The translations under genes and the position numbers were made by a program. The notes beneath the pieces are model-generated. The model searched no databases. It was not told the origin of the DNA and worked only from the letters and a program-made list of their open reading frames with translations. Shown piece by piece: positions 8,587-63,747 of a DNA stretch of 64,000 bases. How positions within the stretch are numbered: the stretch's first letter is position 1; each line of letters begins with the position of its first letter. The DNA is from a virus (taxonomy: Duplodnaviria > Caudoviricetes), in IMG/VR virus record IMGVR_UViG_3300037010_001838. One strand, 5' to 3'.

Positions 8587-8720
8587 TCTCTTTAGCGTTT
8601 GTGTTCAGACGACATAACAGGTCAGGACTACTATAAACATCACAGTAGAAGCGATTGGGTTGCTCGTACCGCAGCACAAACCTTTATAGGGTCCTGCAAT
8701 GGGGCCCTCTTTTTTATCTG

Positions 8721-8784
8721 TTGTCTTTAGGGTAACAAAAAGGTATAATACTTACATGACATCAGGGGTCAGTGGGGAGGTATA
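8721..8784 (+). repeat. duplicated promoter/leader cassette, copy 1
   Basis: TTGTCT-17-TATAAT then ATAATACTTACATGACATCAGGGGTCAGT(G/A)GGGAGGTATA, repeated at 10257-10296. Confidence 0.8.
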
Positions 8785-8795
8785 GAACAAACGTT

Positions 8796-8861
8796 TTAGG
8801 CCAACCTACCAGGTCAACAGTTGATCTTATTAGGCCAACCTACCAAGTCAACGGTTGATCT
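8796..8861 (+). repeat. tandem duplication of about 34 bp
   Basis: TTAGGCCAACCTACCA(G/A)GTCAAC(A/G)GTTGATCT twice. Confidence 0.85.
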
Positions 8862-8910: not shown

Positions 8911-9249
8911 ATGTCATTTCATATTATGAATTCAGATTTATTTGAATTTGGTTGTTCACCAAGAGCACTGAATATGTATGGTTTCAATATTTCCTCAACG
9001 CTTCTCTCATCAGAAGCCAGTGACAATATATTCTTCAGTAAGACCAAATGTTTGAACTTTATGATTCGTACGATGGAAATTCTCCAACAGGAAATTCTCC
9101 AACAATCGAGTGAAGAATCAACTATCATCTACCAACGTCCTGTTAATAGACTCCCTGTTGTTACATGTATGAACAACGAGAACGTTCCGCTATACACATT
9201 CAGTATGATCAAATTCACAACCCAAGATAGCCCATCGGAGGAACTCTAA
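8911..9249 (+). CDS. hypothetical protein
   Basis: AAGGAG SD, 112 aa. Confidence 0.6.
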   Translation: MSFHIMNSDLFEFGCSPRALNMYGFNISSTLLSSEASDNIFFSKTKCLNFMIRTMEILQQEILQQSSEESTIIYQRPVNRLPVVTCMNNENVPLYTFSMIKFTTQDSPSEEL

Positions 9250-9649: not shown

Positions 9650-9907
9650 TAGTGAGTTGAGTGGTGGGTATTCACTGATAGGTAAAGGGTTCGAGTACTC
9701 GCTTCGTTAATATGCCAAGTGGTGTAATAGTAAGCACACCTTTCGGCCGCGTTGCTCGTGGTGTTGAGAGGCCGGGAGACGGTTCCAGAATTTCGGACGG
9801 CGCTATGAAAATAGAGGTGTAAGTGGGCGGACGTCCATGAGAGAGAAGCCGTATGACAGAGAATAGAGCTTGGGGCAGGTGTCCACCTTCCCAGGCTCTT
9901 TCTTTTT
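9650..9907 (+). ncRNA. candidate small RNA with own promoter and terminator
   Basis: TCGACT-16-TATAAT (9616-9643); GC-richer non-coding body; terminator AGAGCTTGGG/CCCAGGCTCT plus T-tract (9865-9907). Confidence 0.5.
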
Positions 9908-9963: not shown

Positions 9964-10232
9964 ATTGAAAAATTCAAAGTCCTAATAGGGTCACAACTTT
10001 ACAACACATCTTTTACCCTATTACAAAAAGTTCGTAAAAAAATCTCCTGTATAATCAACTAACTACGTTCCAATTTTTTCAACAATCTCTTTATAATCAA
10101 AGAGTTATGATTTCATTTTTTCATGGAAAAACACCAAATTATTTTTCCTTCAATTCTTACTAAAAATAAATATTGTTTATAATCAAAGAGTTACAACGGG
10201 AATCCAAATGTATACCTTTGGTGAACTTTTTG

Positions 10233-10296
10233 TTGACTTTAGGGTAATGATATGAGATAATACTTACATGACATCAGGGGTCAGTAGGGAGGTATA
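10233..10296 (+). repeat. duplicated promoter/leader cassette, copy 2
   Basis: TTGACT-17-GATAAT and a 40-nt segment matching 8745-8784 with one mismatch. Confidence 0.8.
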
Positions 10297-10443
10297 CAAC
10301 TCTTATTTTAGAGCAATTCAGCAGTCAACAAAATTCTTTCTATCAGCACATCAAAACATTCAATGCTCACAACAAGGTGTTCCACAGTATAATGGGCACT
10401 CGTCAACCCACTATTGACGGGGTGGTTCTTTGTGTCAACCTTC

Positions 10444-22327: not shown

Positions 22328-22540
22328 TTAATTTGAAACTGTTAGAAGAGCGGGGCACCACTCAGGTGCTCTATCTCTTTCATACCAACAATTTGAAATT
22401 ATTTTATTGTTAACTCCACAGACTACTTGTATTCCTCGGTCATATTCTTCTGGCGTATTACAGTAGTAATCAGTTATTAATTGAGTACATCCTTTACAGT
22501 GATATGTAATTGTCATTGATGGTCCAAAATTGTTTTCCAT
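22328..22540 (-). CDS. hypothetical Cys-rich protein
   Basis: Coupled to guaC stop (TAATG). Confidence 0.55.
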   Translation of the reverse strand: MENNFGPSMTITYHCKGCTQLITDYYCNTPEEYDRGIQVVCGVNNKIISNCWYERDRAPEWCPALLTVSN

Positions 22541-24798
22541 TATCTCACCTTTGTTGTTATGTCTTCATACACCCGATTGTGAGTGTTATTCACTCTAATA
22601 AACGTTGCACGTTTTGAAAGTTCCTTTAGTGTTTTACTTCCTGTATATGTACACGTACTCCGAACCCCACCTAGAATATGGTTAATTGTATCTTTAACTG
22701 GTCCTCGATATGGAAGTTCGATTGTTCGTCCTTCACTCGAGCGATATTCAGCCAAACCCCCACTGTGAGCTTCCATTGCTGTAGATGAACTCATCCCGTA
22801 GAATTGGACAAACTTACGCTCTACTTCCAAACACTCAAGAGAAGAACCATCAATATCTTTTATAACTTCGTTAGTTTTATACCACTTCGAACTTACTTCA
22901 CCTCCACCTTCGTCGTGTCCAGCGAACATTCCACCACTCATTACAAAATCAGCGCCACCTGCAAATGCTTTTGCAAAGTCTCCAGGAGTATTACATCCCC
23001 CATCGGAACACAACCTTCCGCCTAATCCATGAACAGCATCAGCACATTCTATAATTGCACTCAATTGGGGAAAACCAATTCCAGACACTAACCTTGTGGT
23101 ACAAACTGAATTGTGAACAATCATGTTGTTTGCAATGAAACTGTGGGTTGGGTGATCAATTTCCAAATCGTAGACGGGAACCTCACACTCTGTTGGGTTT
23201 TCAATTTCAAGTATTTTTATAACCTGATAATGTGAAAGATGTCTTTTTTTGTGAGAGGTCGCCAGAAAACTTCGATATCCATCTTTTCGGGGGTGTTGCA
23301 TAGGATATGAAGACCGTTTCCCGTTGTTTGACATATTTGGGAAACTCCCAAATATATTAAACGTAATCCAGCTGAATAGTTCCATGAGTTGTTGTGACGT
23401 GTTGTTAAAATTAACCTGGCCTTCTTTTGTAATGTGGCCGTCACTATCAACTAATCCATCATACAATCCCCGCAAATATTCTGTGTTGGTGCACATGAAT
23501 TGGTCTGGAAGATGTTTTTCATGGAACTTTCCAAACTGTTGGAAAAATTCTTCCCACTGTTTACTATACAAGGTGATCGTGGTCAACGTTTTCCGTTTAT
23601 TAGAACATACTGGGATTTTACCCGTAACCATCTCAACAGCAGACATTAATTTAACTACATGATGTTGATCTCTTGAGTTTATATACCACTCAACACCTTC
23701 AGAAAAACTTGAAAATCCCCTGCTGTTGGTTCCTTTTGTTTTTCTTGAAGTACCATCTCCAAGAAAAAAACCAAACACATAACCAGTGTTGTAATCAGAT
23801 TTAACAATAGTGTTATAATTATCCAAATGCTCTTCTCGTATAAAATAACTTGAAATATCGATATGAAAACTATCTGGTGTTTCCCAATTAATATTGATGG
23901 GAAGTAAAGCTACATCTTGTCGTATTTCACTCACCGGTTTCCATTTTATTTTTTCCTCTCCCAAACGAGTAGGAACCTCCAGCGCCTTTTTATACCCTTT
24001 GCTTTGTAGTGTTGTAATACTAATAGAATTTAGATCACCTACGTAACAATGATGGTCAGGAGTTAGTCTCAACGGAATGTTGAAGTGATCATGTTTTATC
24101 TGTGTTGTTTTCTTATATCCTGTGGTATAAGCGGATAACACAGTTGCTGGTTCTCCAGTACTCGTAATTATACGATCCCCAGGTTGAACATCTTTGATAT
24201 TTTTATAAACACCACTGGACATTAAAATTCGAGCATCACCCGTTAAACACCCACTGCCTACTCCAACCTTGATGATATCTGCACCAGATAATACTAATTG
24301 TTCTGCCATTTCAGGTGTAACAACGTTACCAACAAGAAGAGTTGTGTTTGGATATTTGTCTCGTAATTTAGTTACAGTAGATACAAAAGTTTCTGTATAC
24401 CCATTAGCAACGTCAACACACACATTTAAAGGAGGTCTGCCAAACATTTCGATGAAGTGTTCAAGCTTATCGAGGTCACTTTGAGACGTTCCAACTGAAT
24501 AAAAAATATATTGTTCAAATGAGGGATTGTTTTTATAAAAATCTACAAGTTGAACTACTGGATAATGTTTATGTAATGCTACCATCATTTTAAATTCAGC
24601 AAATCGTTCCGCCATTTCAAAAGTTCCAACTCCATCCATATTTGACGCTATAATTGGAATACCAGTCCATTGTTGGTGAGAGTATTTGAATGTGAACGAC
24701 CTTTCAAGAGACACGTCTTTGCGTGAAGTTAGTGATGACCTTTTTGGAATAAGTAGCACATCACCAAAATCCAATTTAACATCCTCTACTATTCTCAT
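22540..24798 (-). CDS. guaC: GMP reductase containing an intein
   Basis: KLDFGDVLLIPKRS, IIASNMDGVG, VDVANGY, KVGVGSG|SVCTTR, FAGGADFVMSGGMFAG, FYGMSS. Confidence 0.92.
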   Translation of the reverse strand: MRIVEDVKLDFGDVLLIPKRSSLTSRKDVSLERSFTFKYSHQQWTGIPIIASNMDGVGTFEMAERFAEFKMMVALHKHYPVVQLVDFYKNNPSFEQYIFYSVGTSQSDLDKLEHFIEMFGRPPLNVCVDVANGYTETFVSTVTKLRDKYPNTTLLVGNVVTPEMAEQLVLSGADIIKVGVGSGCLTGDARILMSSGVYKNIKDVQPGDRIITSTGEPATVLSAYTTGYKKTTQIKHDHFNIPLRLTPDHHCYVGDLNSISITTLQSKGYKKALEVPTRLGEEKIKWKPVSEIRQDVALLPININWETPDSFHIDISSYFIREEHLDNYNTIVKSDYNTGYVFGFFLGDGTSRKTKGTNSRGFSSFSEGVEWYINSRDQHHVVKLMSAVEMVTGKIPVCSNKRKTLTTITLYSKQWEEFFQQFGKFHEKHLPDQFMCTNTEYLRGLYDGLVDSDGHITKEGQVNFNNTSQQLMELFSWITFNIFGSFPNMSNNGKRSSYPMQHPRKDGYRSFLATSHKKRHLSHYQVIKILEIENPTECEVPVYDLEIDHPTHSFIANNMIVHNSVCTTRLVSGIGFPQLSAIIECADAVHGLGGRLCSDGGCNTPGDFAKAFAGGADFVMSGGMFAGHDEGGGEVSSKWYKTNEVIKDIDGSSLECLEVERKFVQFYGMSSSTAMEAHSGGLAEYRSSEGRTIELPYRGPVKDTINHILGGVRSTCTYTGSKTLKELSKRATFIRVNNTHNRVYEDITTKVR
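23110..24249 (-). mobile_element. 380-aa intein with LAGLIDADG homing endonuclease
   Basis: Begins CLTGD, ends IVHN followed by Ser; internal FGFFLGDG and LYDGLVDSDG motifs. Confidence 0.92.
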
Positions 24799-27116: not shown

Positions 27117-27289
27117 CATTTATCAATCTCTCGACTAAGAAAACCCCCAGATGCTTCAGCACCGGGGGTGAACTACCCGATTGCTAAAACAATTGGGTAG
27201 TTCACATGATATCATTGAACAATTAATCGATAATAACACGGAATGTCAGAAATTTGTTGGTGGTATTTCTGATGGAATAGAATGATTCG

Positions 27290-27318
27290 TTGACTTTTAT
27301 AAATAAGTCATATATACT
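27290..27318 (+). promoter_or_regulatory. tRNA-operon promoter 1
   Basis: TTGACT-17-TATACT, identical 29 nt at 50045 and 63401; contains TATAAATA and TGACTT/AAGTCA inverted repeat. Confidence 0.9.
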
Positions 27319-27354
27319 TATAACACTGAATTAATTACTTAAAGGATTTACAAA

Positions 27355-27450
27355 ATGAACACAAACGGATTAGGTTATTGTCTATCACTCGGGTCTTTAT
27401 CCATATTGGATAAGAGCCAGGTCGCCGTTTGGGGAATTACCAAGATGTAA
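27355..27450 (+). CDS. leader (attenuator) peptide 1, MNTNGLGYCLSLGSLSILDKSQVAVWGITKM
   Basis: AAAGGA SD; 31 codons between promoter and terminator; codons 5-18 are only Gly/Leu/Tyr/Cys/Ser/Ile. Confidence 0.8.
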   Translation: MNTNGLGYCLSLGSLSILDKSQVAVWGITKM

Positions 27451-27469
27451 AGAGAAAAAATCCCAAAAG

Positions 27470-27500
27470 AAAGCCTGGCTCGAAAGACCCAGGCTTTTTT
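27470..27500 (+). terminator. attenuator terminator 1
   Basis: AAAGCCTGG...CCAGGCTTT plus T-tract; 5' arm also pairs with GAGCCAGGT (27414-27422). Confidence 0.9.
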
Positions 27501-27506
27501 GTTGTA

Positions 27507-27526
27507 AACTGTTATTTAAAAATTTG
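27507..27526 (+). promoter_or_regulatory. boxA-like antitermination site 1
   Basis: AACTGTTATTTAAAAATTTG, conserved at 50308 and 63748, resembles rrn boxA TGCTCTTTAACAATTT. Confidence 0.6.
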
Positions 27527-27536
27527 AAATATTTTG

Positions 27537-27655
27537 GGGCATGCGGCGAAGTTGGAGAGTCGCGGCGGACTGACTAGAGAGCATTGGTTTTCCAGTGTTC
27601 TCGACTAAATCCGTTCCCTCGTGGTGAGTAGGTTCGATTCCTACCATGCCCACCA
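27537..27655 (+). tRNA. tRNA-Tyr(GTA) with 33-nt insertion in the anticodon
   Basis: GGGCATG/CATGCCC-A-CCA; GCGGA-CTG|insert 27573-27605|TAAA-TCCGT; long variable arm; GGTTCGATTCC. Confidence 0.8.
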
Positions 27656-27661
27656 ATTTAT

Positions 27662-27747
27662 GCGCTAGTGCCGGAGTAGACGAACGGAACTGCCTGCAAA
27701 GCAGATGGTGAAAGCCCACGTGGGTGCAAATCCTACCTAGCGTTCCA
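27662..27747 (+). tRNA. tRNA-Cys(GCA), long variable arm
   Basis: CTGC-CTGCAAA-GCAG arm; U73; CCA. Confidence 0.85.
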
Positions 27748-27754
27748 AAATAAA

Positions 27755-27844
27755 GGGGAGTGAAATAAGGCTAGGTGGTCCTGGCGCAGGGTTGTAGCTC
27801 CTGTCCCTCGTGGCAAGAAGTTCGATTCTGTCCTCTCCCCACCA
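27755..27844 (+). tRNA. atypical tRNA, GTA anticodon (Tyr-like)
   Basis: CAGGG-TTGTAGC-TCCTG; GGGGAG/CTCCCC-A-CCA; weak T-stem. Confidence 0.5.
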
Positions 27845-27853
27845 AAATTTAAT

Positions 27854-27930
27854 ACCCTTCTACGCTAATTGGTAACGCGGCAACGCTTAGAACGTTGTGG
27901 TTCTCAGTTCGAATCTGAGGTTGGGTACCA
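27854..27930 (+). tRNA. tRNA-Leu(TAG), short variable arm
   Basis: CAACG-CTTAGAA-CGTTG; CTCAG-TTCGAAT-CTGAG; CCA; two acceptor mismatches. Confidence 0.75.
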
Positions 27931-28061
27931 AGTTTGTCCTGTTGTGTGTTGTTTGGAACAATCGCTTTGTTGGTGGTATCTGGCTATTCAAACGAACCAT
28001 AATTCGATACACAAGAAAACAGTTAGAACGTACATTTATAAAGATTAAAACATGATAAATT

Positions 28062-28144
28062 GCCCTGGTGACAAATGCAAATTGGTACAGCTACTGCGCT
28101 AAGAACGCAGGTTTTTACGGGTTCGACTCCCGTCTGGGGCACCA
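28062..28144 (+). tRNA. tRNA-Leu(AAG)
   Basis: CTGCG-CTAAGAA-CGCAG; GCCCTGG/CTGGGGC-A-CCA. Confidence 0.85.
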
Positions 28145-28152
28145 AAAATATT

Positions 28153-28248
28153 ACCGTATCATTCCAGTAGGTGCTGGTAAGAATCCATAAGAGTTGTACT
28201 TGGAGTCCAGGTGCAACACAGGCAGAGCGTGACTGCAATACGGTTCCA
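28153..28248 (+). ncRNA. tRNA-like RNA ending in TCCA
   Basis: Terminal 7-bp stem ACCGTAT/ATACGGT plus TCCA; internal hairpins; no canonical T-loop. Confidence 0.45.
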
Positions 28249-28257
28249 AAATTTAAT

Positions 28258-28330
28258 GCGGGTTGTCAAGTGGTGTACGTTTGGCCTTCCAAGCCGAAAG
28301 AGGTGAGTTCGAATCTCATAGCCCGCTCCA
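28258..28330 (+). tRNA. tRNA-Gly(TCC)
   Basis: TTGGC-CTTCCAA-GCCGA; GCGGGTT/AGCCCGC-T-CCA. Confidence 0.9.
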
Positions 28331-28339
28331 AAATATTAT

Positions 28340-28441
28340 GGCGCAGATAGGTGTAGTTGAAACAGCACTGTGGGAGATTCCTCGAGGCGTAGCTCCCATT
28401 CCTCTGGATAAGTGGGTTAAATTCCCATCCTGTGGCCACCA
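28340..28441 (+). tRNA. tRNA-like gene with enlarged 16-nt anticodon loop, isotype unclear
   Basis: GGGAG/CTCCC stem around ATTCCTCGAGGCGTAG; GTGGG-TTAAATT-CCCAT; ACCA. Confidence 0.5.
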
Positions 28442-28509
28442 AACACGTTTGTCTCATTAATCTATATGACAAGGTGAGCGAGGGTTTGAATCCCTCTTTG
28501 GATACTAGT

Positions 28510-28594
28510 CGGCAAGTGGCTTAGGTAAATTGGTACAGCCCCTGGATTTAAGTTCCAGTGCTCTTGGTTGGGTTCGAATCCCCCTTGCCGACCA
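28510..28594 (+). tRNA. tRNA-Leu(TAA), short variable arm
   Basis: CTGGA-TTTAAGT-TCCAG; CGGCAAG/CTTGCCG-A-CCA. Confidence 0.75.
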
Positions 28595-28600
28595 AATATT

Positions 28601-28691
28601 GGAGAGTAGCGTCCATGGTGGACAAACTGCCTAGAAAGCAGTCGCCGGCATCTAAGTAGAGCCGCTGGTTCGATTCCTGTACTCTCCGCCA
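28601..28691 (+). tRNA. tRNA-Ser(AGA)
   Basis: ACTGC-CTAGAAA-GCAGT; long variable arm; G73; CCA. Confidence 0.85.
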
Positions 28692-28696
28692 CATTT

Positions 28697-28780
28697 CCGC
28701 AGGTGGCTTAGGTAAATTGGTACAGCCCCTATCTTCAAACGGTAGTGCTTTTGTGGGTTCGAATCCCTCCCTGCGGACCA
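28697..28780 (+). tRNA. tRNA-Leu(CAA), short variable arm
   Basis: CTATC-TTCAAAC-GGTAG; paralogue of 28510; CCA. Confidence 0.75.
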
Positions 28781-28792
28781 GACAGTTAAATT

Positions 28793-28876
28793 GCCCCCGG
28801 TGACAAATGCAAATTGGTACAGCTACTGCGCTAAGAACACAGGTTTTTACGGGTTTGACTCCCGTCTGGGGCACCA
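28793..28876 (+). tRNA. tRNA-Leu(AAG), degenerate duplicate
   Basis: Near copy of 28062-28144 with anticodon-stem mismatch and T-loop TTTGACT. Confidence 0.6.
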
Positions 28877-28881
28877 AAATT

Positions 28882-28970
28882 ACGAGTGTGGTGTAATTAG
28901 GTAGATGTAACAGGCTTAAACCCTGCCTGCCTGCCGAAAGGTCGTACCGGTTCGAATCCGGTCACTCGGA
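28882..28970 (+). tRNA. tRNA-Leu(TAA), class II, no encoded CCA
   Basis: CAGG-CTTAAAC-CCTG; long variable arm; ACCGG-TTCGAAT-CCGGT. Confidence 0.8.
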
Positions 28971-29029
28971 CTTTTGTTGATATTTTCGTCATTTTAATAT
29001 ATCATTTAATATATGATGAGAGACTAAAA

Positions 29030-29533
29030 ATGAACAGACATTATCAGAATTATCTTTTTAAGAAGTATCCTGCTCTATATAAAGAACACACTCTTCCGAT
29101 GAGTGAAACTTGTATGTGTTGGGGGGTTACTTGTGGAGATGGTTGGTTTAATCTTATTAATCAATTGTCTGAATTTTTGTGCAGCGATTGGATCTATGAG
29201 AAATACACATACGATCGTATGGTGACTAACCTTGGTCAACTTTTGTATCCAGGTAGTCCTGAAAGTGATTTTAACCCTATTATCACAACTGAGTTGATTG
29301 CCGCAGTCAAAGTAAGGATGGATGATGCAGAACTTTCGATTCCTGTTGCTCGGCAAGTGAAAGAAAAATTTGGAACTCTTCGGTTTTATGTTTCTAACGC
29401 AACTGAAGAACAATATTCAGCAATTCAGTTTGCTGAATATCAAAGTAAAATGATTTGTGAAGTGTGTGGTGCACGAGGAACTGTGGGTGGCCGGGGTTGG
29501 ATTTCAACTCGGTGTATTAAACACAGAAAGTGA
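29030..29533 (+). CDS. conserved phage hypothetical protein
   Basis: CGDGWFNLI...QVKEKFGTLRFY...CEVCG motif. Confidence 0.8.
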   Translation: MNRHYQNYLFKKYPALYKEHTLPMSETCMCWGVTCGDGWFNLINQLSEFLCSDWIYEKYTYDRMVTNLGQLLYPGSPESDFNPIITTELIAAVKVRMDDAELSIPVARQVKEKFGTLRFYVSNATEEQYSAIQFAEYQSKMICEVCGARGTVGGRGWISTRCIKHRK

Positions 29534-29538
29534 TATAT

Positions 29539-29629
29539 GGAAGGTAGTGTCTATGGCAGACAAACTGTTTTGAAAGCAGTCGCCGGCATCTAAGTAGAGC
29601 CGCTGGTTCGATTCCTGTACCTTCCGCCA
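29539..29629 (+). tRNA. tRNA-Ser(TGA)
   Basis: ACTGT-TTTGAAA-GCAGT; variable and T arms identical to 28601; G73 CCA. Confidence 0.85.
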
Positions 29630-29648
29630 GTTTTAAAGTTTTAAATTT

Positions 29649-29733
29649 GTCTCGGTGCAGGGAATTGGTAGACTGAATTGTTTCAAAAACAATTGACCGA
29701 AAGGTGGGAGTTCGAGTCTCCCTCGAGACACCA
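29649..29733 (+). tRNA. tRNA-Leu(CAA)
   Basis: ATTGT-TTCAAAA-ACAAT; long variable arm; CCA. Confidence 0.9.
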
Positions 29734-29741
29734 AACAAATT

Positions 29742-29834
29742 GGTCCTGTAGTTTAAAGAAAACAAGATGATTTATAAACATCCAAGGTCCTAGATGAGGG
29801 CAAGTAGTGGGAGCGTTACCCACCAGGACTACCA
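29742..29834 (+). tRNA. atypical tRNA-Ile(TAT)
   Basis: GGTCCTG/CAGGACT-A-CCA; GATG-A-TTTATAA-A-CATC; long variable region; T-loop AGCGTTA. Confidence 0.55.
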
Positions 29835-29837
29835 AAT

Positions 29838-29960
29838 TGTTGTGTGAGGGGGATTGGTATACCCCGGCGGTGGAATCATAGTGGGGAGCTCTGTGAAAAC
29901 AGACTAAAATAGTAACCCTTCCAGTAGCTTGTGTAGGTTCGAGTCCTACCACAACAACCA
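29838..29960 (+). tRNA. tRNA-like gene with structured insertion in anticodon arm
   Basis: TGTTGTG/CACAACA-A-CCA; D-arm; GTAGG-TTCGAGT-CCTAC; about 43 nt between TGGAA/TTCCA. Confidence 0.55.
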
Positions 29961-30176
29961 ATTGTTGACTTTTACTCTCCATTAGTGTAAAGTATCTTTA
30001 CTTTAAATGTTTGTTGATAAGGTGAACTGTGTCGGAACGTGATTATAAAGAACTTCGAAAAATCGCAAACCAGTTTGTTGATTACAACCTAATACAGTGT
30101 TGCGCAGAACTTGCAGCTATAAGTAACAGGACAGGGGGGAAAACCCCGTTCTTTTGGACTTAAATTAAAAACAGGA

Positions 30177-33815: not shown

Positions 33816-33892
33816 GCGGGAGTAGCTCAGTTGGTTAGAGCGCAACTTTGCCAAAGTTGAGGTCGAGAGTTCAAGTCTCTTTTCCCGCTCCA
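33816..33892 (+). tRNA. tRNA-Gly(GCC)
   Basis: Canonical cloverleaf, CAACT-TTGCCAA-AGTTG, CCA; TATAAATA at 33799 upstream. Confidence 0.95.
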
Positions 33893-35364: not shown

Positions 35365-35436
35365 GCTCAATTGGCTTAATGGTAAAGCAGGTGCTTCTAA
35401 AACACTTGACCGTCGGTTCGATTCCGACATTGGGCA
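35365..35436 (+). tRNA. amber suppressor tRNA (anticodon CTA)
   Basis: GCTCAAT/ATTGGGC-A; canonical D and T arms; GGTGC-TTCTAAA-ACACT puts CTA at 35397-35399. Confidence 0.75.
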
Positions 35437-35443
35437 CCGAGAA

Positions 35444-36179: not shown

Positions 36180-37056
36180 CAGAACGTTTCATCAGAAACA
36201 ATTTAAAAGATAAAGAATTACGCGCTTGTGCAAAGTAACCAACAGCGATGTTGTGAAAGCGGTAGGTCCTACAACTACCGCGCCCTGTAAGGGGTACAAA
36301 CAAGCAAGCCTGACCTACTCCGAAAGGAGCTGATTATCGCCAACGGTAGTCATATGAGGGAAGTTAGGGGTGTGGAAAGAACGAATGTTTACAAGCCTGC
36401 TCTGCAGGGAACTTGGGCATTTGGAGAGTAACGGGTTGTGCCGACCTCACGCCTACACAAACTAGCCATCTCAAAAGGTAAAGGGTAGTACAGTGGTCCG
36501 AACCCGCAAGTAAGGGCTGTTGTGCAAGTTGAGGGGGTTTTGGTACCTGTAATAGGGTGTCACGATTCCTGAAAACTGGTTGAGTAGTCGGCAGATGAAA
36601 AACATGAGGAGTGTGGTATTTTTATACTCAAAAGGTATGAAATCCACTGGAAACGCACTTCTTGGTAGGTTTAACAATGTTAGGGTTAACAGCCCATATA
36701 AATTTGGATTATATTACATAAAACGCAAAGACGTTTCCAGTGTAAAGTGAAAATGGCTTAATCCTTCAGCCGCAAGGTAATGAAGGCGTCCAAAACTCGC
36801 AAGGTCGAGGATGTTGAAAGAAAGTCGCACGCAGAGAGTTAGCGCTCTTGTACAGCTCGCAAGGTTGGCGGTAGACAGATAATCGAGTAGCTTTACATGT
36901 TGGTGGAAAAGCAACCACTTAAAAAATGCAGTCATGTTGATAGACATAGTTGTGCGAAAGCTGATTATGTGGATAAGAGAAGAACTCTAGCTGTAGCAGG
37001 TGATGAGATAATGTCTCGAAGGTATCAATAGTATAGGTTTAATCTCAACCTTATAC
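36180..37056 (+). ncRNA. large structured RNA, GOLLD-like
   Basis: About 880 nt non-coding, many GNRA-capped hairpins (CTCC-GAAA-GGAG, GCC-GCAA-GGT, CTC-GCAA, TGC-GAAA-GC); terminal hairpin with TAATCTC loop; next to phage tRNAs. Confidence 0.65.
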
Positions 37057-38129: not shown

Positions 38130-39632
38130 GTGAGCAAAGAATTTGTGGATGCCCTTTCTATTACAACCAATGTAGCGCACACGGAAAATGGTGCTGTTGC
38201 ATTTGATACAACCAAATCAGCTATGTTGGATTTGTTTGCACAAGGGGGTGCACTCCGCAATCGTGCTGATGATGAAATTCTTCGTTTGTTTTCAAAAGCT
38301 TATGCAGAAAATGCATTGTTTGCCACTCGTGCTATGTTCTATTTCAGGGACGCTCGTGGTGGTCAAGGTGAACGCGATACATTTAGAAAGCAATTAAAGT
38401 GGTTGATTAACGTTAACCCTGACGCTGTCCGTAAAAACATTAAACTTATTCCATACTTTGGACGTTGGGATGATTTGTATGTGTTATTTGATACAGAACT
38501 TGAAACAGATGCAATTACACTAATCTTTACACAGATTGCCGAAGACACGGCATCTGAACATCCCTCGTTGCTTGCAAAATGGTTGAAAAGTGAAAACGCT
38601 TCTTCAAAAGAAACGAAACGACTTGCAACAAAAACTCGTATAGGTCTTAAATTAAGTTCCAAAGCATATCGCTTGATGTTGAGCACTCTTCGTAAGAAAA
38701 TTAACATCGTTGAACGGTTGGTGTCTGCCAATCAGTGGGATAGTATTGAATACAGTGCCGTTCCTTCTCAAGCTAACTTGTTATATGGGAAAGCTTTCTT
38801 CACGCATGACGCTGAACGCCGTAAGAAATTCTTGGATTCTTTAAAGACTGGCGAAAAGAAAATCAATGCGAGTGTTCTTTTTCCATATGAAATCGTCCAT
38901 AAAGCACTTACGGTGGGCAGGAACACACCACAACACGAACGCCAACTCATAGATGCGTTGTGGGACGCTCTTCCAAACTATATTGGAGATAAACAAGAAA
39001 ATGCTCTTGCTGTAGTTGATGTGTCTGGTTCTATGGCTGGTCTTCCATTGGAAGTTGCTATTTCGGTTGGAATGTATTTGGCTGAACGTAACACTTGTGA
39101 AGCTTATCATAACAAGTTCATTACTTTTAGCTCTACACCTCAACTACTTAAAATTCAGGGAGCTGACCTTGTTGAAAAAATAGCTAATATGAATAGTTCT
39201 GCATGGGAAATGAATACAGATATTCAAGCTGTGTTCCGTTTGATTCTTACTGTTGCCAAACAAAACAAGTTAGCACAATCTGAATTACCACAGAAGTTGT
39301 ATATCATTTCTGATATGGAATTTGATGCCGCTATAAGCAACGCTAGATATTCTTATAAGAATCAATGTCGGGGTGTGGTTGACGAAAAATTTTTCCAAAC
39401 AATTTCTAAAGAATTTAGTGAGTGTGGATATACAATGCCCAATTTGGTGTTTTGGAATGTTGATGCTCGGAACCAACAGTTTCCAATGAGTATGGATGAG
39501 CGTGGTTTTCAAATGGTTAGTGGATGTAGTCCGTCTATCTTTAAGCACACAATAGGTGGAGAATTTATGTCTGCTTATGATTTGATGCTTGATGTTATTA
39601 ACAGTGAACGTTATCAACTCGTTACAATTTAA
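38130..39632 (+). CDS. DUF2828 / TROVE-like vWA domain protein (Ro60-related)
   Basis: TENGA, RDARGGQGER, GRWDDL, AKWLKSE, MIDAS VVDVSGSM, FITFS, ISDMEFD, LVFWNV. Confidence 0.85.
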   Translation: MSKEFVDALSITTNVAHTENGAVAFDTTKSAMLDLFAQGGALRNRADDEILRLFSKAYAENALFATRAMFYFRDARGGQGERDTFRKQLKWLINVNPDAVRKNIKLIPYFGRWDDLYVLFDTELETDAITLIFTQIAEDTASEHPSLLAKWLKSENASSKETKRLATKTRIGLKLSSKAYRLMLSTLRKKINIVERLVSANQWDSIEYSAVPSQANLLYGKAFFTHDAERRKKFLDSLKTGEKKINASVLFPYEIVHKALTVGRNTPQHERQLIDALWDALPNYIGDKQENALAVVDVSGSMAGLPLEVAISVGMYLAERNTCEAYHNKFITFSSTPQLLKIQGADLVEKIANMNSSAWEMNTDIQAVFRLILTVAKQNKLAQSELPQKLYIISDMEFDAAISNARYSYKNQCRGVVDEKFFQTISKEFSECGYTMPNLVFWNVDARNQQFPMSMDERGFQMVSGCSPSIFKHTIGGEFMSAYDLMLDVINSERYQLVTI

Positions 39633-46300: not shown

Positions 46301-46520
46301 TCTTCCAAGTCTAACTCTTGATTGGTCTTCCGATATAGGTTTTGCAAGTTCAGAAGGTTTGTTATGGAATTTCTCAAATCGTTGTTTGGATGTTCGTAAT
46401 AATCAAGTAGCAGTTACAGGATACACGTACCAAAATGGAGCAGGAACAAATAATAGCCAAATGATGACTGTGAAAATACCGGTTGCCAACGTATTATTTT
46501 CTGTGGGGAATTGTAAATAA
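43386..46520 (+). CDS. large virion tail/fibre structural protein
   Basis: 1044 aa, Ser/Thr/Gly-rich; GDTMTG.L.L..NP...LQAATKQYVD fibre motif; C-terminal propeller-like repeats. Confidence 0.8.
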   Translation: MQLSFRQGLVQYQSNFLSWSTVRSDSISLSTTNKPVTVTFSQQSSEYLLVEPLGQNATVRWTGLPVSNSSDFWIFWDIDNLTALVTYGFTTVAPVFGPIDPFQTTIPFPTIPATGQHWFDTSSMTMKVWSGSSWTPKIRVFAAKIENGSIIVPYPPGTQVGVASPIKSGRILRDGTGTPIKKANKTFVTSEDRFFIENSDVRTAELETSIVVGIARESIPSYSAVKLEDFNDYYLANYEDTTAGFIGMAIDSATYGESLFVTIQGMITNPAWDWQTPNAKIWIDSNGQLTDVNPGIATPTRGFQQPIARVISPTSIIFGQGYFNDAGTVTNTVVTQKASGSIIGITELSLDPLNLNTPIAVGDNDPRMSDARTPLAHTHQSTDVFYQGTPLDTTLNLIMSDLSGKVSKSGDTMTGFLTLNANPVANLQAATKQYVDSAANQTITLSGDISGSGTSGITTTLSNSGVTAGTYNNSALTSTPFTVDAKGRVTATGTPITITPDWASVLWKPTTLAGYGITDGQPLNVDLTAISNLATGTTGVLTKTGPGTWTLGAASSGASNTIFQEDTSLTITDSGTNGTMSYVVDGRLVMTTDTRNIRFFSGAPDSWVSVVESGAFTLDNTGGSTVKIDSLGNIITLGSVNQSSLTSVLVIKVDSTGNTIWQRLISDNNGTSGATADASAIDSQDNIIMAVNVNHYGTSDTQPILKLDSDGNILWQVGVTQNIDINSPPGTYQPQITDIVVDSSNDVYAGGFLIIQNPDNPGLRTNAGLIVKLSGIDGSVMWQQLIQDSTSSRGDCHLTGITYNPSLNQIYVCGNLLTKDSFSNSSNNGFVAAYDSAGNRQWISLSDVSGDTTHINDQAYDAHGNLVNYKTFSGITLGVGSTLHNSGGTSIYVCGQAFTPRLTNFCICEYIATQGAGITATIGELVTSRTYDNSYGNHSQLYEIVATPTELIAVGNPQTNTFGSDWSILKISLPSLTLDWSSDIGFASSEGLLWNFSNRCLDVRNNQVAVTGYTYQNGAGTNNSQMMTVKIPVANVLFSVGNCK

Positions 46521-46581
46521 TAGCCAAACGATGACTGTAAAAATACCGGTTGCCAACGTATTATTTTCTGTGGGGAATTGT
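46448..46581 (+). repeat. 67-bp tandem duplication at end of tail gene
   Basis: 46448-46514 and 46515-46581, two mismatches. Confidence 0.9.
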
Positions 46582-47812: not shown

Positions 47813-48448
47813 ATGAATAAAATAGACGTTCACATATGTAGGTTTGGTGATTATGATAAAAAACTATATGAACAGTGTCTAAAATCTATAGAACCTGCTT
47901 CACATTTAATAAACATACATTTCGTTGATGATATATCACCTCTCAAAAAAGCCCGATACGTAGGCTATGGTACAGGTTCGGCTGAATACATTTGTCACGT
48001 AGACCACGACGATTATGTGTTTCCAGAAGCATTTCAAGCGTGTTTGGAAGAAATAGAAAAAGATAAAACGCTTTCAGGTGTATATACTAACTCTTTTATA
48101 GTCAATCCGTATAAAAACATAAGAAGACAATTTTACAGTGAAACAACAGAGTGGACAAGAGAGTATCACATTCAAACACCAATTCCTGTTCATCCATTAT
48201 GCATAATGAGACGTTCTGTGTTCGATAAAGTGAAAGACGAATATTTAGAACATGGGTTAGAATTTCGTACAGACCAATATCTTTTTACGTTGATGGCTCG
48301 AGAAGGAGATTTTAAATTTCTTGGAAAAAAATATGGATACGCATGGAGAGATTTTAAAACCGGACACCATGTAAAAAACAACTCCCCAAAAGATAAACAA
48401 CATTTGATAGAATTCAAGAGACAAGTTCTTGGACCTTCCAAAAATTAA
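47813..48448 (+). CDS. glycosyltransferase family 2
   Basis: YICHVDHDDY DxD motif, GT-A pattern. Confidence 0.8.
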   Translation: MNKIDVHICRFGDYDKKLYEQCLKSIEPASHLINIHFVDDISPLKKARYVGYGTGSAEYICHVDHDDYVFPEAFQACLEEIEKDKTLSGVYTNSFIVNPYKNIRRQFYSETTEWTREYHIQTPIPVHPLCIMRRSVFDKVKDEYLEHGLEFRTDQYLFTLMAREGDFKFLGKKYGYAWRDFKTGHHVKNNSPKDKQHLIEFKRQVLGPSKN

Positions 48449-49157: not shown

Positions 49158-49709
49158 ATGAAATTAAAAGACCTAATTCCTCTAACAGAAAATACTACAG
49201 ACTGGGTTGTGTATAAAGTTACCAACTCTAACAACCATAGCACTTATTATGGGTATGGAAAGGGTAATTTAAGACAGACGTTCTTAGCTGGTGCTAATCG
49301 GAACGCTGCCGATAGAACAGAAGCAAAATATGTGAACGCAGCAGGTGGAATTGATAATTGCAAATTTAAAGAGATGGAAATTTTTGATAGCGAATATGAA
49401 GCTTTTATGGAACGAAACGATCTTCGTTCAAAAGATCCAGATTCAATCACAGGGCCATCACGTTTACCATCAGGAATGTTCGAACGTGCCCTAAAAGAAA
49501 ATCCAAAACGAGTTAGTGGATGGAAATTAGGAGCTAGTATTAATGACGAGACTGCAAGAGGAGCCATGAAGAATTTTCCTGAAGAATGTGTGTATGATAC
49601 TAAGAGACTGAGAGATCTTGTTGGAACAGATAAAAAATTAGAAGCTCAAGTTAAAAAAGATTTGGACAGTATGACTTATCCTGCATTTATAAAGAAGTAC
49701 AACCTGTAA
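49158..49709 (+). CDS. GIY-YIG-like protein with MKLKDL N-terminus
   Basis: AAAGGA SD; VVYKVTN...YYGY...E.FM.E pattern. Confidence 0.55.
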   Translation: MKLKDLIPLTENTTDWVVYKVTNSNNHSTYYGYGKGNLRQTFLAGANRNAADRTEAKYVNAAGGIDNCKFKEMEIFDSEYEAFMERNDLRSKDPDSITGPSRLPSGMFERALKENPKRVSGWKLGASINDETARGAMKNFPEECVYDTKRLRDLVGTDKKLEAQVKKDLDSMTYPAFIKKYNL

Positions 49710-50044: not shown

Positions 50045-50073
50045 TTGACTTTTATAAATAAGTCATATATACT
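50045..50073 (+). promoter_or_regulatory. tRNA-operon promoter 2
   Basis: Identical to 27290-27318 and 63401-63429. Confidence 0.9.
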
Positions 50074-50127
50074 TGTATCAACAGTTGAGCAAAGTGCTCA
50101 ATAAATTTAATTAATGGAGATTTGCAA

Positions 50128-50226
50128 ATGATTTTTACGACTTTCTTTACAGCGTTTACAACCCCTGAGGCATGGCATGCCCCAGAGATGGCTGTGTGCG
50201 CTCTTGAGGAAGGTTGGAAAAACTAA
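50128..50226 (+). CDS. leader (attenuator) peptide 2, MIFTTFFTAFTTPEAWHAPEMAVCALEEGWKN
   Basis: GGAG SD; 32 codons; codons 3-22 are only Phe/Thr/Ala/Pro/Glu/Trp/His/Met. Confidence 0.8.
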   Translation: MIFTTFFTAFTTPEAWHAPEMAVCALEEGWKN

Positions 50227-50244
50227 AAAGTTTCCAGAAATTCT

Positions 50245-50276
50245 AAAAAGGGCGCTCCGAAAAAGCGCCCTTTTTT
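50245..50276 (+). terminator. attenuator terminator 2
   Basis: AAAAAGGGCGCT/AGCGCCCTTTTT; 5' arm also pairs with GCGCTCTT (50198-50205). Confidence 0.9.
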
Positions 50277-50307
50277 ATTGTTTGTTGATTTTGTAGTAAA
50301 TGTTTTA

Positions 50308-51230: not shown

Positions 51231-51356
51231 CGCTCCAACAAGTGCTGTGGGTAAGCCTATCGTTAAAAAACGAGATTGAAATCTCGGCTGAGGTTTCATT
51301 GAGTTTTACAAAACGGTGAAAATTCTAGACAGGGTTCGATTCCCTACGAGTGACCA
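51231..51356 (+). ncRNA. 126-nt tRNA-like RNA ending in ACCA
   Basis: CGCTC/GAGTG terminal stem, AGGG-TTCGATT-CCCT, internal CGAGAT/ATCTCG hairpin. Confidence 0.45.
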
Positions 51357-51490
51357 ACAACGGACACTAGACATTTGACATAGTGTCCACTGAATTAAAT
51401 CTTGGTTTTCTAGTATACTAAGAGTATAATTAACATTATATTTGTAATTTGCGTTTTCGAATAAATATACCACTTGTTGGAAAAATTAAC

Positions 51491-57331: not shown

Positions 57332-58294
57332 GTGTCTCTTTCAAATGTTAAGATTTTCGCTGGAAATTCAAATATTGAATTCGCCACAAAGATAGCAAGT
57401 AGGATGGGGTTAGCACTCGGTAAGGCTAAAGTAAGTAAGTTCAAAGACGGTGAAACATCTGTTGAAATTGAAGAGTCGGTTAGAGGAAGTGTTGTATTTG
57501 TTATTCAGTCAACGTGCAATCCTGTTAACGACAATTTAATGGAATTATTGACAATGACAGACGCATTAAGAAGAGCTGCTGCAAAACGCATTATTGCAGT
57601 TGTTCCTTATTATGGATATTCCAGACAAGATAGGCGTCCAGGATTTAGCCGTGGACCAATTACTTCCCGTCTTGTAGCAGATGTGATTCAAGCAGCTGGT
57701 ATTGACCATTTAGTATCGGTTGATATTCATTCTCTTCAACAACAAGGGTTTTTTACGATTCCCTTTACTAACATTTCCGCTTCCGTTGAATTCATTAAAG
57801 ATATCAGAATGATGTATCGTAAAGAAAAAGAAGAAAAAACACTTATGGTTGTTTCTCCTGATATCGGTGGAGTATTACGTTCTAGACAAATTGCAGAACA
57901 GTTAAACGGTGACACTCAATTAGCTATTGTGGATAAACGTCGCCCACGAGCTGGTGAATCAGAAGTTATGAACATCATCGGTGACGTAGAGGGAAAAGTT
58001 TGTATTATGGTTGATGATATTGTAGATACAGCTGGAACTTTATGTAAGGCTGCGAAATCTTTAAAGGACCATGGTGCTCTTAAAGTTGTTGCTTATGCCA
58101 CTCACCCTGTATTATCAGATAATGCTTACGAGAATTTAACTCATTCAGTGTTAGACGAATTAGTAGTAACAGATACAATTCCACTAATAGGCAATGTTCC
58201 AAATAACATCAGACAATTATCAATTAGTGATTTGGTTGCAGAAACTATACGAAGAATGAGGTCCAAGCAGTCTGTTAGTCAAATATATGTTTAA
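57332..58294 (+). CDS. prs: ribose-phosphate pyrophosphokinase
   Basis: FKDGETSVEI, YGYSRQDRR, DIHS, VSPDIGGV, VDDIVDTAGTL, THPVLS. Confidence 0.96.
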   Translation: MSLSNVKIFAGNSNIEFATKIASRMGLALGKAKVSKFKDGETSVEIEESVRGSVVFVIQSTCNPVNDNLMELLTMTDALRRAAAKRIIAVVPYYGYSRQDRRPGFSRGPITSRLVADVIQAAGIDHLVSVDIHSLQQQGFFTIPFTNISASVEFIKDIRMMYRKEKEEKTLMVVSPDIGGVLRSRQIAEQLNGDTQLAIVDKRRPRAGESEVMNIIGDVEGKVCIMVDDIVDTAGTLCKAAKSLKDHGALKVVAYATHPVLSDNAYENLTHSVLDELVVTDTIPLIGNVPNNIRQLSISDLVAETIRRMRSKQSVSQIYV

Positions 58295-63400: not shown

Positions 63401-63429
63401 TTGACTTTTATAAATAAGTCATATATACT
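63401..63429 (+). promoter_or_regulatory. tRNA-operon promoter 3
   Basis: Identical 29 nt to 27290 and 50045; further shares TGTATCAACAGTTGAGCAAAGTGCT with copy 2. Confidence 0.9.
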
Positions 63430-63587
63430 TGTATCAACAGTTGAGCAAAGTGCTTAACTAAATAGTTAGGTGTTGAAAGCTAGGACGTCCCGGTACTAAC
63501 AAAACATAGAAATATGTGGGTGCGTAGAAGCGTATATTAAGCAGACGATAAAGTAGTAAACACCATTTAATTTAAGGAGCTTTACAA

Positions 63588-63683
63588 ATGTTCGTAACCA
63601 GACAACAACAGAGTATTAGTATCATTCGCCGACGCCAAGTGCGTCGCGACAGTGATATTATTATGTCTGGAGGCTGGGTATAG
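63588..63683 (+). CDS. leader (attenuator) peptide 3, MFVTRQQQSISIIRRRQVRRDSDIIMSGGWV
   Basis: AAGGAG SD; 31 codons; codons 5-25 are only Arg/Gln/Ser/Ile/Val/Asp. Confidence 0.8.
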   Translation: MFVTRQQQSISIIRRRQVRRDSDIIMSGGWV

Positions 63684-63705
63684 CATAAAGCTAAATTCTT
63701 AAAAA

Positions 63706-63744
63706 GAAAAACCCAGTTTCCAAAAGAGACTGGGTTTTTCGTTT
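63706..63744 (+). terminator. attenuator terminator 3
   Basis: GAAAAACCCAGTTTC/GAGACTGGGTTTTTC; 5' arm also pairs with TGGAGGCTGGGT (63668-63679). Confidence 0.9.
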
Positions 63745-63747
63745 TAC

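Follow-up and report, generated by a model that had tools for sequence, protein, structure and literature searches.

As a class of mechanism, ribosome-mediated attenuation is textbook material, and several described systems approach the one considered here. In Escherichia coli, pheST is attenuated via the pheM leader, a cellular system in which a synthetase is controlled and one amino acid is sensed. T-box riboswitches bind uncharged transfer RNA (tRNA) directly via a specifier codon, independently of translation, and in mycobacteria Cys-rich leaderless short open reading frames (ORFs) reportedly act as Cys-responsive attenuators, responding to cleavage of tRNA-Cys by VapC4. Why phages carry tRNA genes, and by what means these are controlled, has long been debated, the main ideas being codon compensation, the replacement of host tRNAs that have been degraded, and evasion of anticodon nucleases. 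Here we analyze a 64,000-nucleotide stretch of DNA from a tailed phage (Caudoviricetes; IMG/VR record IMGVR_UViG_3300037010_001838; hereafter, the window), in which a short ORF, leader 1, stands between a promoter and an array of tRNA genes. We consider it likely that leader 1 and three sister leaders act in parallel as ribosome-mediated transcription attenuators, each gating one tRNA array of this giant phage.

Leader 1 and its control codons

The source phage is large, uncultured and of 37.5% G+C, with at least 25 tRNA genes in the window; the nearest IMG/VR contig is 178.8 kb long (CheckV completeness 52%). Strong terminators are rare on the + strand of the window, with only five in 64 kb, and three of these belong to the leader units. 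In the manner of a leader attenuator, leader 1 is a short ORF led by a Shine-Dalgarno (SD) sequence just 3' of a promoter, with an intrinsic terminator between the ORF and the tRNA genes, and with an antiterminator, mutually exclusive with that terminator, inside the ribosome's reach. The parts of the unit are as follows (nt, nucleotides).

27290-27319, + strand: sigma-70-type promoter TTGACT-17-TATACT, 10/12 to consensus in a promoter scan
27341-27346, + strand: SD sequence AAAGGA, 8 nt upstream of the ATG
27355-27450, + strand: leader ORF 1, 31 codons plus TAA
27367-27408, + strand: control run, codons 5-18, G L G Y C L S L G S L S I L
27391-27418, + strand: 1:2 hairpin, candidate pause or protector, -12 kcal/mol
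27414-27434, + strand: antiterminator 5' strand, GAGCCAGGT ... TTTGGGG, within codons 20-27
27461-27481, + strand: antiterminator 3' strand, TCCCAAA ... GCCTGGCTC, overlapping the terminator 5' arm
27467-27500, + strand: intrinsic terminator, core 27473-27494 then T6, -18.3 kcal/mol
27510-27522, + strand: boxA-like box TGTTATTTAAAAA, repeat family D12

A purine-rich, SD-like stretch precedes the start codon by a few nucleotides in all eight leaders that were compared, in the form of GGAG or AAGGA in seven, and as a weak AAAGAA in leader 4, a sister unit introduced below.

The codon-matched leader is real. Codons 5-18 of the ORF read exactly as listed in an earlier, sequence-only reading of this DNA, and specify Gly, Leu, Tyr, Cys, Ser and Ile only. 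The background for such runs was a set of 200,000 random 30-codon windows drawn from ORFs of the same phage, of which none held a run of 14 codons confined to the amino-acid set of array 1. Counting the ten distinct array 1 anticodons that are readable, and leaving four or five further tRNA-like elements uncounted, leader 1 carries a cognate codon for 10/10 (p about 0.003). Conversely, 11 of the 14 run codons are decoded by array 1 tRNAs via Watson-Crick or standard wobble pairing. The near one-to-one mapping claimed in the sequence-only reading holds to this extent, with GGT, CTC and TCC as its soft spots.

Sister units and the partition of the code

The 30-nt promoter at 27290 is repeated exactly at 50045 and at 63401 (0 copies expected by chance), and a fourth copy, with one mismatch, lies some 6 kb beyond the window end in the near-identical contig G003, in which array 3 is also seen in full. 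All four copies lead into the same layout, in which an SD sequence and a 31- to 33-codon ORF are succeeded by a terminator, then by a boxA-like box, and finally by a tRNA array.

50045-50285, + strand: sister unit 2, leader ORF 50128-50226, terminator 50250-50276; run codons 3-22 with F, T, A, P, E, W, H, M; array Pro, Ala, Glu, Phe, Thr, His, Trp, Met
63401-63745, + strand: sister unit 3, leader ORF 63588-63683, terminator 63706-63740; run codons 5-25 with R, Q, S, I, V, D; array Gln, Asp, Arg, Val, Ile, Ser(GCT)
G003: leader 4, run codons 10-18, core NNVNVNNK, with I, N, V, K; array Val, Asn, Lys x3

Like leader 1, the three sister leaders thus carry control codons for the arrays behind them. 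The share of residues falling within the amino-acid set of the own array is 0.60, 0.81, 0.80 and 0.34 for leaders 1-4, as against 0.06-0.40 for non-matching pairs, and each of the four fits its own array best (4 x 4 table). The in-set runs span 14, 20, 21 and 8 codons, respectively, lengths that no background window attains, and the leaders cover 10/10, 11/12, 9/10 and 3/4 of the anticodons in their own arrays. The four peptides are unrelated in sequence and share only this common architecture, therefore a shared function of the peptides themselves is unlikely.

The arrays also divide individual amino acids between them. The Ser, Ile and Val tRNAs are split among arrays by codon box, and the leaders track this split for Ser and Ile (chance values of about 0.009 and 0.06, respectively). 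The leader 1 run uses Ser UCN and Ile ATA, in keeping with array 1 tRNAs TGA, AGA and TAT, and the leader 3 run uses Ser AGY and Ile ATY, in keeping with array 3 tRNAs GCT and GAT. For Val the split is tracked only partly, as GTA in leader 4 is decoded by an array 3 tRNA. Because the Ser and Ile codon boxes follow their own arrays, sensing of isoacceptor tRNAs is favored over sensing of amino-acid supply. The latter is the basis of a first alternative: the attenuators may be real, yet report amino-acid supply or tRNA charging, with the link to tRNA genes reflecting a general response to slow translation. Leader-peptide attenuators respond to the aminoacyl-tRNA pool, in which low tRNA and low charging are indistinguishable (as for trp and his), and the matches reported here are stronger at the level of amino acids than of codons. 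However, such an explanation does not anticipate that Ser UCN versus AGY, and Ile ATA versus ATY, should follow the isoacceptors of the own array; nor would extra tRNA relieve amino-acid starvation, so that the output would mismatch the signal. We consider it unlikely.

Two further observations concern the amber codon. A tRNA with anticodon CTA (amber suppressor type; Pyl according to ARAGORN) is present at 35365-35438 of the window, and the stop codon of leader 3 is TAG (63681-63683), such that TAG read-through late in infection would take the ribosome across the terminator. This stop is not conserved, being TAA in a diverged contig, G002.

The box downstream of the terminators

One copy of the motif TGTT[CA][TA]TTAA[AC]AA lies 3' of each of the four attenuator terminators. 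On the + strand its only copies are those at 27510, 50311 and 63751, and the one 3' of leader 4 in G003; elsewhere it occurs once in about 82 kb, with both strands searched. At the equivalent position, G002 and a more distant phage, G005, carry CGCTCTTTAAAAA, GTTCTTTAACAA and TGCTCTTTTAAAA. The box resembles the rrn boxA consensus, TGCTCTTTAACAA, and may function as a boxA.

A conserved box after each terminator could instead be a promoter, which would lend itself to a second alternative. Here, the promoter, ORF and terminator would constitute a separate short transcript (a small mRNA or small regulatory RNA) that always ends at 27500, and the array would be transcribed from an unrecognized, perhaps phage-specific, promoter in or near the box (27507-27530). 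Weak -35- and -10-like hexamers are readable around the box, and the phage may encode transcription factors of its own. Yet the promoter scan returned no sigma-70 site between 27505 and 27537, and the box has the boxA likeness just described. Further, a separate transcript leaves unexplained both the four unrelated peptides that spell out the codons of their own arrays, and the conserved and compensated partner, within the ORF, of the terminator 5' arm. We judge this explanation to be quite improbable.

A proposed RNA switch set by ribosome position

The segments GAGCCAGGT (27414-22) and GCCTGGCTC (27473-81) form a duplex of nine base pairs, including one G-U. Together with the inner stem TTTGGGG/TCCCAAA, this outer duplex gives an antiterminator of -24.2 kcal/mol, which takes up the terminator 5' arm. 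The antiterminator duplex of leader 1 (-19.4 kcal/mol, versus a shuffle mean of -11.2) is stronger than that of 999/1000 dinucleotide shuffles of the ORF (p = 0.001); the corresponding values for the other three independent leaders (2, 3 and 4) are p = 0.115, 0.005 and 0.024. The 9-bp pairing and inner stem named in the sequence-only reading are both present, and the antiterminator is significant against shuffles and accompanied by compensatory changes that are detailed below. In all eight leaders examined, the partner of the terminator 5' arm is a segment of the ORF's 3' part. The full-length terminator and antiterminator states of leader 1 are close in energy (-44.3 and -41.2 kcal/mol), hence the choice between them should be kinetic.

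The same reading had proposed a protector hairpin overlapping the antiterminator, and with it a full 1:2, 2:3, 3:4 layout. The hairpin exists at 27391-27418, at the -12 kcal/mol listed above, and is weak and only partly exclusive with the antiterminator. Only its lower stem overlaps the latter (by about 5 nt); in the predicted fold the upper stem and the antiterminator form side by side. The full layout is not supported, as the 1:2 pairing (-12 kcal/mol) is far weaker than, and largely compatible with, the 2:3 pairing (-24 kcal/mol); the hairpin may serve as a pause site. Before the terminator 3' arm exists, the ribosome-free antiterminator is predicted to beat the 1:2 hairpin by 7.6 kcal/mol, and because of this preference we read leader 1 as other than trp-type. 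Its default state is predicted to be read-through, and a ribosome would have to keep pace with the polymerase for termination to occur.

The consequences of stalling were modeled by masking the RNA to 9, 12 or 15 nt past the A-site codon, and folding the transcript up to the terminator loop. In each of the four leaders, the last stall that permits the antiterminator closely tracks the end of the matched run.

Leader 1: last antiterminator-sparing stall at codon 15-17; matched run ends at codon 18
Leader 2: last antiterminator-sparing stall at codon 19-21; matched run ends at codon 22
Leader 3: last antiterminator-sparing stall at codon 23-25; matched run ends at codon 25
Leader 4: last antiterminator-sparing stall at codon 16-18; matched run ends at codon 18

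In leader 1 the stop codon falls within the antiterminator loop, therefore a ribosome finishing the ORF would sit between both strands.

An antiterminator that is predicted to form without a ribosome, next to a weak 1:2 hairpin, is what would be expected of a third alternative, in which the units are default-on timers and the leaders respond mainly to overall capacity for translation, or to coupling (after host shut-off, for instance), as opposed to specific codons. A global sensor, however, needs no four codon sets matched to four arrays, and has no need for a matched run that ends exactly where stalling loses its effect. This explanation appears to us highly improbable.

Conservation and recurrence in other phages

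Leader 1 of G003 is identical to that of the window. G002, a diverged 56-kb contig, has homologues of leaders 1, 2 and 3. Its leader 1 run differs by three substitutions (G to C, C to Y, L to S), all of which remain within the set G, L, Y, C, S, I, and one antiterminator pair has changed from G-C to A-U, which is compensatory. A hairpin is kept at the 1:2 position, in a shifted register. In leader 3, a U-A antiterminator pair of the window is C-G in G002, which is a further compensatory change. At the finest scale, a strain variant that co-occurs in three metagenome runs, at around one tenth of the main depth, combines G27414A with a T insertion after 27479, restoring the outermost antiterminator pair; this variant also lacks the whole Tyr tRNA gene (126-nt skip, 27528 to 27655).

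More distantly, G005 is a 379-kb phage with only 33% identity to the window in a neighboring protein. Its homologue of leader 2 has the run AAEHTFAEAFTAPAEP, then the conserved ALE(D/E)G, and lies upstream of His, Phe, Pro, Glu, Ala and Thr tRNAs; a second leader, rich in Leu, Lys, Trp and Tyr, lies upstream of Lys, Leu, Trp and Tyr tRNAs. The core of the sequence-only reading, namely attenuation by a leader peptide with control codons for the very tRNAs that it gates, is supported by the four units matching their own arrays, by the significant and compensated antiterminator, and by these homologues in diverged phages.

Comparable arrangements recur in unrelated phages. In IMG/VR phages L054, L055, L056 and L072, and in L005 and L007, a short and apparently leaderless ORF and a terminator precede tRNA arrays, and a segment of the ORF pairs with a terminator arm. 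L005 additionally has a boxA-like TGTTCTTTAATAA. The cultured Caulobacter phage phiCbK (NC_019405, locus L114) has two clear codon-matched units upstream of tRNA groups, as well as a third unit with a weaker match. All three short ORFs are apparently leaderless, and each is followed by a terminator and then a tRNA group; the matches were judged by eye, without background comparison.

49540-49677: phiCbK ORF, residues 3-42 almost only A, L, S, H, T, K, P; before Pro, Pro, Thr, Lys, Lys, Leu x3, His, Ala, Ser x3
51341-51439: phiCbK ORF, run RQFVRQIQVVRNIRAGRSR; before Phe, Val, Ile, Ile, Val, Gln, Gln, Ile, Arg, Arg, Gly
48081-48143: phiCbK third short ORF and terminator; before Glu, Asp; weaker tRNA match

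A TATAAT lies 6 nt before the ATG of the short ORF in L054 (8524-8650), L056 (about 8935-9060) and L005 (10632-10825). The L005 leader, which contains all 20 amino acids in 41 residues, was discarded as evidence, as 1.2% of random windows do the same. Phage T5 was likewise set aside as an example, its annotated small ORFs being without terminator-linked, codon-matched leaders. A search for cultured relatives of loci L054 and L005 gave similarity at the level of tRNAs only. Megablast of the leader 1 region returned no close relative among cultured phages, and tblastn with the neighboring 1044-residue protein gave short matches only. Searches with the promoter pattern and the leader 1 pattern retrieved only two IMG/VR contigs, and a metagenome scan retrieved none.

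Finally, short ORFs are common in AT-rich DNA, and one might fall between a promoter and a terminator by chance, but this is effectively refuted by 0/200,000 random windows reaching the observed run of any of the four leaders, and by the recurrence of the design in other phages.

Proposed mechanism

The layout, the codon-anticodon match, the alternative pairings and their conservation are properties of the DNA as described above; from them we infer leader translation, stalling, read-through and the function of the boxA-like site. Host RNA polymerase would start at the strong sigma-70 promoter, and the 31-codon leader would be loaded with a ribosome. Where decoding of codons 5-18 is fast, this ribosome, having reached codon 17 or beyond, would cover or melt 27414-27434 while the terminator is being made; with the 5' strand blocked in this way, the 3:4 hairpin would form and transcription would end at 27500. 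If a tRNA that reads the run is scarce, cleaved or uncharged, the ribosome would linger within the run, allowing the antiterminator (27414-34 with 27461-81) to sequester the terminator 5' arm. The polymerase could then continue into the array, with the boxA-like site (27510) probably conferring resistance to termination. As the products are tRNAs that read the sensed codons, the circuit would constitute negative feedback on decoding capacity, and the four sensors would share out the genetic code among themselves.

Several points weigh against this account. At the level of codons, CTC and TCC are decodable only if A34 behaves as inosine, GGT is without a cognate tRNA in array 1 (a Gly(GCC) lies at 33816), and the strain variant that lacks the Tyr tRNA gene still has TAT in its leader 1. 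The codon-level match of leader 4 is weaker (codon fraction p = 0.04; coverage not significant). Several members of array 1 are non-canonical, with insertions and weak scores, and may be non-functional as tRNAs, and a promoter-like site at 28977 could independently drive the distal tRNAs of the array. As the antiterminator is predicted to fold with no ribosome present, termination needs tight transcription-translation coupling, which is assumed; the stall model assumes the same coupling, and a ribosome footprint. The four public sequencing runs that contain the window sequence are all of DNA (microbial mat, sediment), with no RNA run among them.

More broadly, and tentatively, we suggest that phages may carry a modular, isoacceptor-resolving system of tRNA homeostasis, in which several leader sensors share the code, and each induces only the replacement tRNAs for slowly read codons. 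Such a system would let a phage sense, and make good, the selective loss of host tRNAs to anticodon-nuclease defenses or to phage-induced decay; it might be widespread, with examples among giant uncultured phages, in further IMG/VR lineages and in the cultured phiCbK.

Array 1 and other features of the window

Array 1 spans 27537-29961 and holds the following genes.

27537-27655, + strand: tRNA-Tyr(GTA), 33-nt hairpin insertion in the anticodon loop; found only with the insertion allowed
27662-27747, + strand: tRNA-Cys(GCA), long variable arm; ARAGORN/Rfam
27854-27930, + strand: tRNA-Leu(TAG); ARAGORN/Rfam
28062-28144, + strand: tRNA-Leu(AAG) copy 1; hand reading, Rfam sub-threshold at 20.9 bits; family D9
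28258-28330, + strand: tRNA-Gly(TCC); ARAGORN/Rfam
28513-28594, + strand: tRNA-Leu(TAA) copy 1; hand reading of the anticodon stem-loop; family D14
28601-28691, + strand: tRNA-Ser(AGA); ARAGORN/Rfam
28697-28780, + strand: tRNA-Leu(CAA) copy 1; hand reading, alignment with 28513 gives CAA; family D14
28793-28877, + strand: tRNA-Leu(AAG) copy 2, anticodon-stem mismatch; hand reading; family D9, 95% identical to copy 1
28882-28971, + strand: tRNA-Leu(TAA) copy 2; ARAGORN/Rfam
29030-29533, + strand: 167-residue ORF inside the array, with a promoter-like site of its own at 28977
29539-29629, + strand: tRNA-Ser(TGA); ARAGORN/Rfam
29649-29733, + strand: tRNA-Leu(CAA) copy 2; ARAGORN/Rfam
29742-29831, + strand: tRNA-Ile(TAT); relaxed ARAGORN, Rfam 29.3 bits

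Among the tRNAs that the sequence-only reading had listed, Gly(TCC), Leu(TAA), Cys(GCA), Leu(TAG), Ser(TGA), Ser(AGA), Ile(TAT) and Leu(CAA) were recovered by standard tools (Ile with relaxed settings), and Tyr(GTA) was recovered if its insertion was allowed; the other copies of Leu(TAA) and Leu(CAA), together with both Leu(AAG) genes, were read by hand only. These hand-read Leu tRNAs are supported by their membership of the paralogous repeat families D9 and D14. The Lys(ctt) that ARAGORN calls at 28697 was rejected as a register error, judged against the 79%-identical paralogue at 28513.

The 33-nt insertion in the Tyr(GTA) gene folds into an 11-bp hairpin with symmetric 7-nt flanking strands, and shows no likeness to a group I intron or to an obvious bulge-helix-bulge intron. 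At 86 nt with a long variable arm, the tRNA-Cys(GCA) at 27662-27747 is unusual for Cys. Further tRNA-like elements lie at 27756-27843, 28158-28251, 28339-28443 and 29837-29961, and 28447-28512 is a fragment consisting of a T arm only. The tRNA-like elements of array 1 have an acceptor stem, T arm and CCA end, and are missed or misread by standard tools; some are 94-126 nt long and carry insertions. The product of the 167-residue ORF (29030-29533) is a widespread phage protein without a Pfam match.

Elsewhere in the window, between tRNA arrays 1 and 2, there is a GOLLD RNA at 36606-37051 (Rfam RF02032, 198.8 bits). Protein-coding features include a 752-residue IMP dehydrogenase / GMP reductase-like protein, interrupted by a LAGLIDADG-domain intein, at 22540-24798 on the - strand; a DUF2828/DUF7788 protein at 38130-39632; and a PRPP (phosphoribosyl pyrophosphate) synthetase at 57332-58294. 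An 86-nt element with promoter-like hexamers is present at 8719-8804 and 10231-10316 (81% identity), and a strong terminator at 9861-9902, with a 36-codon ORF upstream, may belong to another small transcription unit, one with no connection to tRNAs. At 46448-46581, where a 1044-residue ORF ends, 67 nt are duplicated in tandem (97% identical).

Comparison with known systems

If the proposed mechanism is true, then it would be the first attenuation mechanism known to govern tRNA genes, and phages would gauge decoding capacity codon by codon, supplying tRNAs on demand. The units are short and self-contained, with a host-type promoter, and have equivalents in phiCbK, whose host Caulobacter vibrioides is genetically tractable, which makes the proposal directly testable. 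The leaders could also aid annotation, by predicting which of the odd tRNA-like genes in an array function, and what they decode. A full-text search of openly accessible literature found no description of attenuation of tRNA genes, of a multi-isoacceptor 'checklist' leader, or of a partition of the code among parallel sensors.

Each of the closest described systems shares part of this design. T-box riboswitches are likewise switches between terminator and antiterminator in a 5' leader that report the state of a specific tRNA, but in the phage unit it is the translating ribosome that senses, and no T-box match was returned by Rfam in 27200-30100 at E up to 10. The rrn-type boxA (NusB/NusE) is comparable both in its consensus and in that the transcript downstream is untranslated structured RNA, as is rRNA, whereas the phage boxes match imperfectly, at about 9-11 of 13 positions. 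The mycobacterial Cys short ORFs resemble the phage units in that a ribosome stalled on an upstream short ORF signals the loss of a tRNA or amino acid, with altered expression downstream, and the units of phiCbK, L054 and L005 also look leaderless; the mycobacterial ORFs differ in gating Cys metabolism and stress genes as opposed to tRNAs, and in sensing one amino acid. In the pheST/pheM system, a leader-peptide attenuator controls a component of translation by decoding of its own codons, as here, but for synthetase instead of tRNA genes, with a single amino acid sensed, and in a cell instead of a phage.

The nearest parallel lies with the attenuators of amino-acid operons (trpL, hisL, leuL, pheL, thrL, ilvL). 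These, too, have an SD-led, promoter-proximal short ORF with control codons, then a terminator whose 5' arm pairs alternatively near the ORF end, so that ribosome position decides the outcome; in thrL and ilvL, one leader senses several amino acids. Matches to the Rfam models Thr_leader (RF00506; leader 1 at 25.6 bits and leader 3 at 27.1, below the gathering threshold of 55) and His_leader (RF00514; leader 4 at 29.8 bits, below the threshold of 49) constitute a weak resemblance of three of the leaders to known ones; none of the Rfam leader families scores at its threshold. In contrast to these operons, the phage units would regulate tRNAs and not biosynthetic enzymes, and they have a weak 1:2 pairing and a boxA-like site after the terminator, with an untranslated state that is predicted to give read-through as opposed to super-attenuation. 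Each phage leader, moreover, samples six to eight amino acids and up to 10-11 isoacceptors, in varied synonymous codons instead of one repeated codon.

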